Below, piece after piece: positions 17,018 through 18,041 of a DNA stretch of 37,975 nt. Origin of the DNA: a virus (lineage: Duplodnaviria > Heunggongvirae > Uroviricota > Caudoviricetes). The notes under the pieces were generated by a model. That model was not told where the DNA came from. It searched no databases and saw only the letters and a program-made list of their open reading frames with translations. The translations under genes were made by a program, and so were the position numbers. Within the stretch, counting starts at the first letter, position 1, and the number at the start of each line of letters is the position of its first letter. The stretch covers positions 1 through 37,975 of IMG/VR virus record IMGVR_UViG_2534681604_000008. The stretch is one strand, 5' to 3'.

Positions 17018-17059
17018 TTTTAATTGCACTGAAATTTAACAAGTGACTTTCAGGAAAAT

Positions 17060-17084
17060 GCCTCGCAGAAGCGGGGCTTTTTTA
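17060..17084 (+). terminator. Intrinsic terminator downstream of the lysis cassette
   Basis: GCCTCGC-AGAA-GCGGGGC stem (one G-U pair) followed by TTTTTTAT. Confidence 0.5.
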
Positions 17085-17226
17085 TGTCCGCAGTAAACGC
17101 GCATCTCACGCGCATATTAACGAGAGCCTTTCAGTAAGCGGGCCTGAGAATTGCCGTTATAGGTGGCGACCTCTCTCGGGCGGCTTTTCTGTGAGACAGG
17201 CTCACTTTCTAAAAGGTAAAGACGCT

Positions 17227-17715
17227 ATGAACCAATTAGAAGAAAAGCTTCAAAGAATGATTTCCTTATACAAGGAAGATAACTGCCAAAAAGTTCCTGA
17301 AAACATCGCAGAGTTAATGGAATTGGCAAGTGAATTTTCTGGCATGCTTAAGTCGTCAGATGTTCGGTCAGCGTTCTTTGTTGAAATGCTGATGCACGGC
17401 GGACTTATGGCAACAATGAGACGTGTAATGGAAGACCAGAGAAAAGAACCTCCTCAGGTATACGTTTTGTCATCGAAGAAAACTGGGCTAACCAAAATTG
17501 GGTATTCATCCAACATTCCACAACGCATCAAATCGCTTGGCAACTCTGGACCAGACTGTTTGAAGCTTGAGTGCCTGATCCCTGGTGGAAGAGAAACTGA
17601 AAACATGCTTCATCGCAAATTTGCCGCAAAGAGAAAGCACGGTGAATGGTTCGCCCTGTCCAAGGATGACATTGAGGGGTTGAAATCTGTAGCGCTTACT
17701 TCTGATGGCTATTAA
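17227..17715 (+). CDS. T5orf172/GIY-YIG-like domain protein with an unrecognised N-terminal domain (moron between lysis and packaging genes)
   Basis: C-terminal half VYVLSSKKTGLTKIGYSSNIPQRIKSL...LHRKFAAKRKHGEWFAL fits the recalled T5orf172 signature; AAGG RBS; flanked by a terminator upstream and 325 bp of non-coding DNA downstream. Confidence 0.6.
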   Translation: MNQLEEKLQRMISLYKEDNCQKVPENIAELMELASEFSGMLKSSDVRSAFFVEMLMHGGLMATMRRVMEDQRKEPPQVYVLSSKKTGLTKIGYSSNIPQRIKSLGNSGPDCLKLECLIPGGRETENMLHRKFAAKRKHGEWFALSKDDIEGLKSVALTSDGY

Positions 17716-18041
17716 TGCTTGTTTAGAGCAATTTTCATAACAGCTCTTCATTACAAAGCCCATCTACGGGTGGGCTTGATAATGAAACCGGAATTTATTC
17801 TGGGCAACCAGTTACGGCAGTACCACGAAACAACCCAAGCCAGTAAGTGGGGAAATAACACTGGCAGCCATTGAAAGATGAACCTCCAGCCTTATGGCAA
17901 AAAAGATTCTTTGTGGTGGCGGACTGATGGAAAGACATCGGTTATTGCAGAGGCCATTCAATGAGTGGTCTCGACAATGGCTTATACCCTACACGGGATA
18001 ACTTAACTGATATCCCTTTTAACGGATAAACGGAGCCAACA

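Follow-up and report, generated by a model that had tools for sequence, protein, structure and literature searches.

The DNA between the lysis and packaging genes of this prophage carries a self-contained accessory module of ~700 bp (about 17060-17760), made up of a terminator, a ~140-nt leader and an ORF for a 162-aa GIY-YIG-like protein. The window (i.e. the whole stretch of 37,975 nt that was analysed) is a P22/Sf6-like lambdoid prophage, and the gene, accessory and uncharacterised although annotated before, belongs to a known nuclease family and occupies a mosaic slot that is itself known. We put a rough probability of 40% on our main reading, that the product is a late-expressed DNA nuclease of a selfish or competitive, homing-endonuclease-like kind. 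The protein is not a virion or packaging component, and it is probably not cargo expressed by the lysogen. What had been noticed from the sequence alone holds, and the interpretation given with it is supported in part: a defence, counter-defence or homing-type function is plausible, and the evidence leans to the homing or competitive end rather than to prophage-expressed defence.

The nuclease gene is the sole gene between the Rz stop (17017) and the DUF2560 start (18042), and the coordinates of all features are collected in Table 1. Translation starts at the ATG at 17227, with the Shine-Dalgarno sequence AAGG (17213-17216) 10 nt before it, and continues for 162 codons plus stop; the product is 162 aa long, not the 163 aa given in the sequence-only reading of this DNA. 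An alternative GTG start at 17191, which gives 174 aa, was dropped because the upstream frame is not conserved among relatives. The isolated position that had been described, alone between a terminator after Rz and a non-coding stretch, stands on its left side; on the right, the 3' stretch (17716-18041, 326 bp) is gene-free in the annotation of relatives but not featureless. The Q gene and PR' annotated in HK106 align, in the same orientation, ~1.9 kb upstream of the nuclease gene, which runs in the direction of the Q-dependent late operon. The GC content of the accessory DNA is 0.43-0.45 vs 0.50-0.53 in the adjoining genes.

Table 1. Features of the lysis-packaging junction in the window
Feature	Position	Strand	Remarks
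Lambda-type holin	15800-16123	+	
R lysozyme	16107-16583	+	
Rz with embedded Rz1-like frame	16580-17017	+	
Intrinsic terminator t1	17060-17085	+	stem 17060-17077, then TTTTTT; terminator scan; left module boundary
Conserved ~140-nt leader	17086-17226	+	common to cassette types; contains second hairpin and Shine-Dalgarno sequence
Inverted repeat GTGAGACAGGCTCAC (GTGAG-N5-CTCAC)	17191-17205	.	occurs once
GIY-YIG-like nuclease gene	17227-17715	+	ORF list, Pfam
N-terminal domain, aa 1-77	17227-17457	+	three long helices, pI 5.1, no Cys/His zinc-finger motif
C-terminal T5orf172/MUG113 domain, aa 78-162	17458-17712	+	Y79, Y93, R100, E125, H129, E140 conserved
Conserved block, apparently structured	17740-18041	+	slot framework, not nuclease module
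Hairpin h1, long, interrupted	17747-17786	+	inverted repeat I1, 16-nt arms, 88% complementary; no following T run
35-codon ORF	17894-18001	+	5'-terminal remnant of the long DUF2560 gene (ST64T orf118 type) found in Salmonella phages
Hairpin h4	17940-17982	+	8-bp plus 10-bp stem, several G-U pairs; covariation support
DUF2560 gene	18042-18284	+	
Sf6-type small terminase	18364-18789	+	
Large terminase	18786-20198	+	
Portal gene		+	after large terminase in the window's gene list

The C-terminal part of the protein matches two Pfam families of the GIY-YIG clan above their cut-offs, MUG113 (PF13455, aa 90-151, E 5.5e-15, 56.1 bits, cut-off 22.3) and T5orf172 (PF10544, aa 78-150, E 1.8e-10, 41.6 bits, cut-off 20). 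The C-terminal T5orf172-like motif read earlier from the letters and its GIY-YIG-like character are borne out by these matches; the canonical GIY-YIG family PF01541 stayed below its cut-off (12.5 bits vs 22.6, E 0.19, aa 77-104 only). As had also been noted, the N-terminal part is unrecognised; no family in Pfam or NCBIfam covers these ~77 aa, and the NCBIfam search of the protein gave no match. In PHROGs, the entire protein belongs to phrog_4284 (9.5e-88), of unknown function. An exhaustive profile search found the C-terminal domain in 38,379 cluster representatives, and about a dozen of the 150 top-scoring representatives listed have the two-domain architecture of ~160 aa.

Structure prediction, which had been proposed as a check for catalytic residues, agrees with the domain call: the AlphaFold model has a GIY-YIG-type alpha/beta fold and matches the catalytic domains of SLX1 and I-TevI. 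The link to solved GIY-YIG structures is by fold comparison only; searched with the family profile, the PDB sequences yielded no relative (best E 0.97). An hhalign comparison of the family profile with the I-TevI catalytic domain gave a probability of 1% and nothing usable. The residues listed for the C-terminal domain in Table 1 are invariant across the full-length members examined, with the exception of one Salmonella E140G allele. From motif order and fold, we infer that Y79, Y93, R100 and E140 are a catalytic-type set of Tyr, Tyr, Arg and Glu equivalent to that of I-TevI and Odn. The dN/dS vs relatives is 0.06-0.15, alike in both domains, and these values indicate that the gene is under strong purifying selection.

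The two domains differ in charge, with a basic C-terminal domain (pI 9.4) and an acidic N-terminal domain in which neither Cys nor His residues are clustered. The protein was found to contain no zinc finger, HTH, AP2 or NUMOD domain, and Pfam shows no HNH domain in it. For the N-terminal domain, we found no homology to any satellite or phage protein, and hhalign detected no relation to a slot-mate Rha protein.

The databases hold an identical protein under the name 'GIY-YIG nuclease family protein [Escherichia fergusonii]', and the 90% cluster of the nuclease protein takes in very common Salmonella and E. coli prophage proteins. Among phages, HK106 gp64 is 98% identical and Chlobot also carries the gene; epsilon34 gp68 and g341c gp64 are relatives at 32%. 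In the literature, we found no functional study of this protein, HK106 gp64 or epsilon34 gp68.

The nuclease gene sits in a slot whose contents are exchanged. We found the flanks in 2,840 of 5,426 complete E. coli genomes and the nuclease gene in 80 of those 2,840, and of the 228 phage records that contain the flanks, HK106 and Chlobot alone carry this gene. In lysis-terminase backbones that match the window at 94-96% identity, KilA-N or Rha takes its place. Variable presence in otherwise near-identical prophages, which the sequence-only reading had named as a point to check, is therefore what the genomes show; it follows that the gene is not a conserved structural or packaging component. The exchange boundaries are sharp in pairwise BLAST, with the left flank common from 17060 to 17231 (through ATGAA) and the right flank resuming at 17739-17749. 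In the right flank, no fixed difference sets alleles with the module apart from those that lack it.

Other occupants of the slot are hkbK (KilA-N plus ORF11CD3) with hkbL in HK620, Rha (pRha plus ORF11CD3) in P22 and BTP1, an HNH gene plus KilA-N in phage Dewey, and an ORFan in N7. The slot is 'empty' in phages L and PS3, which retain the last ~25 bp of an hkbL-type gene; therefore, the empty state looks like the outcome of a deletion of a KilA-N/hkbL-type cassette and not like a pristine target. The moron pid of P22 and BTP1 directly follows the conserved block and is on the other strand. The HK97-like siphovirus HK106, Chlobot and P22-like prophages have copies of the nuclease gene that are ~98% identical at both the DNA and the protein level, and frameshifted copies occasionally occur.

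Relatives of the protein were traced down to 32% identity; 9 of the 11 backbones have them at the lysis-terminase junction, and the other 2 have them in tail operons. The junction holds relatives of 48%, 49%, 76%, 80% and 86% identity as well as that of epsilon34 (32%), and this placement is kept although the holin, endolysin and terminase families differ. In a lambda-like tail operon, a 51% relative lies between the genes for the major tail protein and the tail chaperone, and a 37% relative lies in another tail region. All traced relatives have the same orientation as the late genes. In a Klebsiella relative, the nuclease gene and the start of a DNA/RNA non-specific endonuclease gene overlap. 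A 99% identical gene with enterobacterial phage flanks was also seen on a 2.9-kb contig labelled as a Bacillota MAG, the sole such locus in the contig scan, and the Bacillota label is probably a misbinning.

These placements bear on whether the protein could be a cofactor nuclease of packaging that assists terminase, like the HNH protein gp74 of HK97. The position immediately upstream of the terminase genes in 9 of the 11 backbones would suit such a role, but the gene is present in ~3% of flank-sharing prophages, similar backbones carry KilA-N or Rha, and the family occurs with several unrelated small and large terminase families. In addition, two members lie in tail operons, and HK106 retains its own gp74-type HNH gene. 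We regard a packaging cofactor as barely plausible.

The slot-mates raise another explanation, that the protein is a domesticated, non-catalytic DNA-binding or regulatory protein, like the Rha and KilA-N proteins or PLE CapR. The slot-mates join a DNA-binding module, pRha or KilA-N, to ORF11CD3, and a fusion of pRha, a helical domain and T5orf172 exists (P0030). UniProt names the C-terminal domain 'T5 Orf172 DNA-binding', and CapR is a T5orf172-related repressor (PMC10448857). Such a regulator is nevertheless highly unlikely, given catalytic-type residues that are invariant, strong purifying selection and a protein in which no DNA-binding module of its own was found. Independently of that question, the P0030 fusion ties the helical plus T5orf172 unit to the domain-shuffling network of viral KilA-N, Bro-N, Rha and T5orf172 modules that Iyer, Koonin and Aravind reportedly described in 2002.

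At its left end, the module starts with t1, which is also annotated as a rho-independent terminator in HK106 and epsilon34. Homology of the window with the 86%-identical relatives spans about 17060-17759, beginning at 17060 in one (L061) and at 17074 in another (L062). Of 10 family modules, 7 have a hairpin followed by T6 at 149-161 nt before the ATG, with four different stem sequences among them; since four different stems keep a fixed distance, we argue that the terminator is a selected part of the module. A second terminator-like hairpin (17153-17184, then TTTTCT) lies 42 nt before the ATG. The leader is 92-100% identical among the GIY-YIG, KilA-N and Rha cassettes of E. coli phages, and it is still alignable in relatives of 48-80% protein identity, including an insertion in a tail operon (L016).

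An RNA structure in the leader is possible. Long-range pairing may form between GAGCCT (17124-17129) and AGGCTC (17198-17203), and one relative (L011) has a single compensatory change, GAACCT/AGGTTC, in an alignment read by eye. RNAalifold on eight leaders gave a weak consensus of -11.5 kcal/mol with a covariation term near 0, and the single-sequence fold is not unusual (z = -1.5). Because the RNAalifold consensus is weak, we do not claim a riboregulator.

The inverted repeat just upstream of the gene had been proposed as an operator. It is present at 17191-17205, but we reject the operator role. The window contains 305 perfect 5-bp-arm inverted repeats with 3-8 nt loops (~8 per kb), 51 of which have a loop of 5 nt, and a repeat of this kind is therefore expected by chance. 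The repeat overlaps the 3' arm of the possible leader helix, in the part shared by every cassette type, and the Salmonella and epsilon34 versions (GTGCGAACAGGCTCAT) do not preserve it.

A soft, consensus-only scan of both strands of 16900-18400 found no sigma-70-like promoter, where 2.3 sites were expected by chance. This result bears on prophage-expressed anti-phage defence, one of the functions suggested by the sequence-only reading, in which a nuclease made by the lysogen would attack incoming phage DNA by superinfection exclusion or abortive infection. Besides having no promoter-like site in that interval, the gene lies within the late operon behind one or two terminator-like hairpins, and family members also lie within tail operons. 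The P22-like defence genes sieA, sieB and bstA lie near the immunity region, and the nuclease gene does not. The sole match in PADLOC-DB is the candidate PDC-S57, a weak one (E 7.1e-6, aa 73-146 vs profile positions 3-83 of 212) that is limited to the generic nuclease fold. Defence by the prophage is, in our judgement, unlikely.

Downstream of the nuclease gene, sequence comparison and folding suggest that the block at the right of the slot is a structured RNA element of wide conservation, with hairpins backed by covariation and no family in Rfam. The block is near-invariant in HK97, HK022, HK620, P22, L, epsilon34 and Sf101, whatever the slot occupant. Its + strand folds at -102.7 kcal/mol vs -74.4 kcal/mol for shuffles (z = -4.99), with none of 100 shuffles as stable, and the - strand gives z = -3.4. 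Across 54 unique variants, ten paired-column polymorphisms (each in at least 3 variants) nearly all stay paired via G-U wobble on the + strand. The Rfam search gave no family at gathering score, and at E <= 1 returned only insignificant istR and STnc100.

Hairpin h1 starts the right flank common to all cassettes; in the KilA-N, Rha and empty alleles, this flank becomes homologous again at 17739-17749. For h4, six aligned sequences, among them the Stx-phage and Ss-VASD versions, have standard pairs in 107 of 107 cells (100%); 5 of 18 pairs are changed on both sides, 0 of 500 shuffles match what was observed, and slid controls pair at 33-60%. The two hairpins are diverged copies of one design that is found nowhere else in the window. 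Within the block, the 35-codon ORF corresponds to the 5' end of the 118-aa Salmonella DUF2560 form, the translation of which begins MAKKILCGGGLMERHRLLQRPFNEWSRQWLIP, and 5 unique variants have lost the start codon of the ORF (17895 T>A). A reasonable guess is that the block provides the late mRNA with processing or stabilising hairpins, e.g. RNase III-type sites. This structured block is the more unexpected by-product of the analysis, and it may deserve its own follow-up.

Under our main reading, a late-expressed selfish or competitive nuclease, the gene would be read solely by antiterminated late transcription, and its product would appear late in lytic growth. The helical N-terminal domain would probably dimerise the protein or dock on a partner, which we infer because the GIY-YIG domain has a single active site. 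The GIY-YIG domain would nick or cleave DNA. Most likely, co-resident related phages, or satellites, without the module would have their DNA cut, and recombinational repair would then spread the module via the conserved flanks.

As in homing endonuclease genes, presence is sporadic with near-identical copies in unrelated backbones, and the position is beside conserved essential genes. Placement beside terminase and late genes matches the published pattern of T5orf172 homing endonuclease genes, of which 35% lie near a terminase gene (PMC10448857). About 87% of the published T5orf172 homing endonucleases have CapR-type zinc fingers (PMC10448857). In the protein studied here, no sequence-specific DNA-binding domain was found, and the N-terminal domain is an acidic helical bundle. 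The case for a homing or competitive role is weakened by this result and by the non-nuclease cassettes that share the boundaries; the empty alleles of L and PS3, apparently deletions, also speak against it. Ordinary lambdoid mosaic recombination explains the distribution equally well, as the boundaries are common to non-nuclease occupants.

The target could instead be a satellite or rival as such. By analogy with Odn of phage ICP1, the protein would be a late nuclease used against elements that hijack late functions or packaging, namely phage-inducible islands or competing prophages, with a helical domain that senses or binds a foreign protein and not DNA. The T5orf172 nuclease Odn destroys the PLE satellite, and its conserved Glu has been shown to be essential (PMC8263062). 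The nuclease gene of the window adjoins packaging genes, and its N-terminal domain is not DNA-binding-like, both of which would fit; this domain has no homology to any satellite or phage protein, however, and the argument is by analogy alone. We consider an Odn-type weapon unlikely. In a further extension of the analogy, the terminator, leader and nuclease would form a plug-in late-gene weapon able to land in any late operon of temperate enterobacterial phages. There, the acidic helical domain would recognise, or dimerise on, a protein of the rival element, the GIY-YIG domain would destroy the DNA of the rival in an Odn-like way, and the leader would be an RNA switch that silences the toxic nuclease outside late infection. 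This version is quite unlikely.

If the protein is active and selfish or competitive, as our main reading has it, the homing and anti-satellite biology of T5orf172 proteins, elucidated to date in the lytic Vibrio phage ICP1, would extend to temperate lambdoid phages of E. coli and Salmonella. Such a nuclease would also help to explain the sharp mosaic boundary at the lysis-packaging junction. As known now, it is an annotated, uncharacterised gene in a long-known variable slot, and the gain is modest.

Among known systems, lambda bor and P22 pid are likewise variable, low-GC accessory DNA at or near the lysis-packaging junction, and the sequence-only reading had compared the position of the gene with that of bor. 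Both bor and pid are transcribed independently from the opposite strand, whereas the nuclease gene is co-oriented with the late operon, has no promoter detected by the consensus scan and has its terminator upstream, not downstream; we therefore do not retain the description as a bor-like moron. One feature of morons, variable extra DNA with deviant base composition, is present. The own promoter and downstream terminator of a moron were not found, the former in a consensus-only scan, and h1, on the 3' side, has no T run and is part of the shared flank.

Compared with I-TevI and the Seg proteins of T4, the protein leaves PF01541 unmatched and is without a linker and a zinc-finger or HTH DNA-binding domain. 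Its likeness to PD-T4-3, a GIY-YIG anti-phage restriction enzyme, is at the fold level only, and size, architecture and genomic setting differ. The closest characterised parallels are Gp53, Gp121 and Gp130 (homing) and Odn/Gp88 of ICP1 and CapR of PLE, which share PF10544/PF13455 and the conserved Arg and Glu. Like the nuclease gene, the T5orf172 genes of ICP1 are free-standing beside essential late genes, often terminase, are sporadic and undergo modular domain swaps (PMC10448857, PMC8263062). The ICP1 and PLE proteins carry CapR-, DUF723- or DUF4397-type zinc fingers or RepA_N where this protein has an acidic three-helix bundle; ICP1 is a lytic phage, whereas the nuclease gene belongs to a temperate lambdoid prophage.

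The Rha proteins of P22 and BTP1 and the KilA-N plus ORF11CD3 proteins of HK620 (hkbK) and HK97 have no sequence similarity to the nuclease and are DNA-binding modules without a nuclease domain. Their genes nonetheless share with the nuclease gene the same insertion point, the upstream terminator, the leader up to the ATG and the downstream flank.

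The slot at the lysis-terminase junction, whose swappable occupants include the nuclease gene (162 aa; helical N-terminal domain and C-terminal T5orf172/MUG113 domain), has a GC content down to 0.43-0.46 over its whole length including the DUF2560 gene (17000-18350), vs. 0.50-0.53 for the lysis and terminase genes. We found that the terminator and leader upstream of the nuclease gene accompany it across different phages, with one copy in a tail operon. The distance from the terminator hairpin and its T6 to the ATG is fixed at 149-161 nt (seven of ten family members), and the leader is still alignable between nuclease-gene loci of different phages. 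Since the stem sequences of the hairpin differ between loci, this comparison indicates compensatory maintenance of the terminator. A sigma-70 consensus scan of both strands (16900-18400) detected no promoter for the nuclease gene.

Features of the slot and of related loci
Feature	Location	Strand	Remark
Terminator hairpin + T6, then ~140-nt leader	window 17060-17226	+	found in relatives too
Terminator + leader counterparts	L016 3795-4000; L018 3725-4000; L019 3695-4000; L061 about 3829-4000
76%-identical homologue + adjoining endonuclease gene	L018 4001-5187		Klebsiella variicola prophage
51%-identity homologue	L016 4001-4492		within tail-gene cluster
37%-identity homologue	L015 5001-5483		within tail-gene cluster
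Empty slot	L067 (phage L) and L068 (phage PS3), 313-349
Near-invariant non-coding stretch	window 17740-18041	+	conserved among phages, stable fold
Long interrupted hairpin h1	window 17747-17786	+	related to h4
Long interrupted hairpin h4	window 17940-17982	+	related to h1; covariation

The L016 and L015 homologues are tail-gene insertions rather than occupants of the lysis-terminase junction, and that of L016 is flanked by the genes for the major tail protein and a tail assembly chaperone. In the Klebsiella prophage, the next gene encodes a 232-aa DNA/RNA non-specific endonuclease (PF01223); because its start overlaps the stop of the homologue, the arrangement suggests a two-nuclease unit. A 99%-identical gene with enterobacterial Rz and flanks was also found on a 2.9-kb contig labeled as a Bacillota MAG (JAEWTL010000129.1), a label that is most likely a binning artefact.

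Among the homologous proteins, P0030 (220 aa) is a natural fusion of a Phage_pRha DNA-binding domain to the helical and T5orf172 unit and thereby connects the nuclease family with Rha, an alternative occupant of the slot. Two 107-aa proteins (P0012 and P0015) look like frameshifted copies, since their match ends after the N-terminal 70-83 aa and the sequence beyond diverges. The cluster representative P0002, from one Salmonella allele, has Gly at the putative catalytic Glu140.

In phages L and PS3, only about 33 bp separate the Rz stop from hairpin h1, and about 25 of these bp match the end of the coding sequence of an hkbL-type gene (hkbL accompanies the KilA-N occupant in HK620). Because this end remains, the empty slot reads as a deletion derivative and not as a virgin site.

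Downstream of the nuclease gene, the non-coding stretch matches no Rfam family. Its + strand fold has z = -5.0, and the h4 pairing is 100% across the six sequences compared, with compensatory changes at 5 of 18 pairs. The stretch, near-invariant in HK97, HK022, HK620, P22, L, epsilon34 and Sf101, is possibly a late mRNA processing or stability element.
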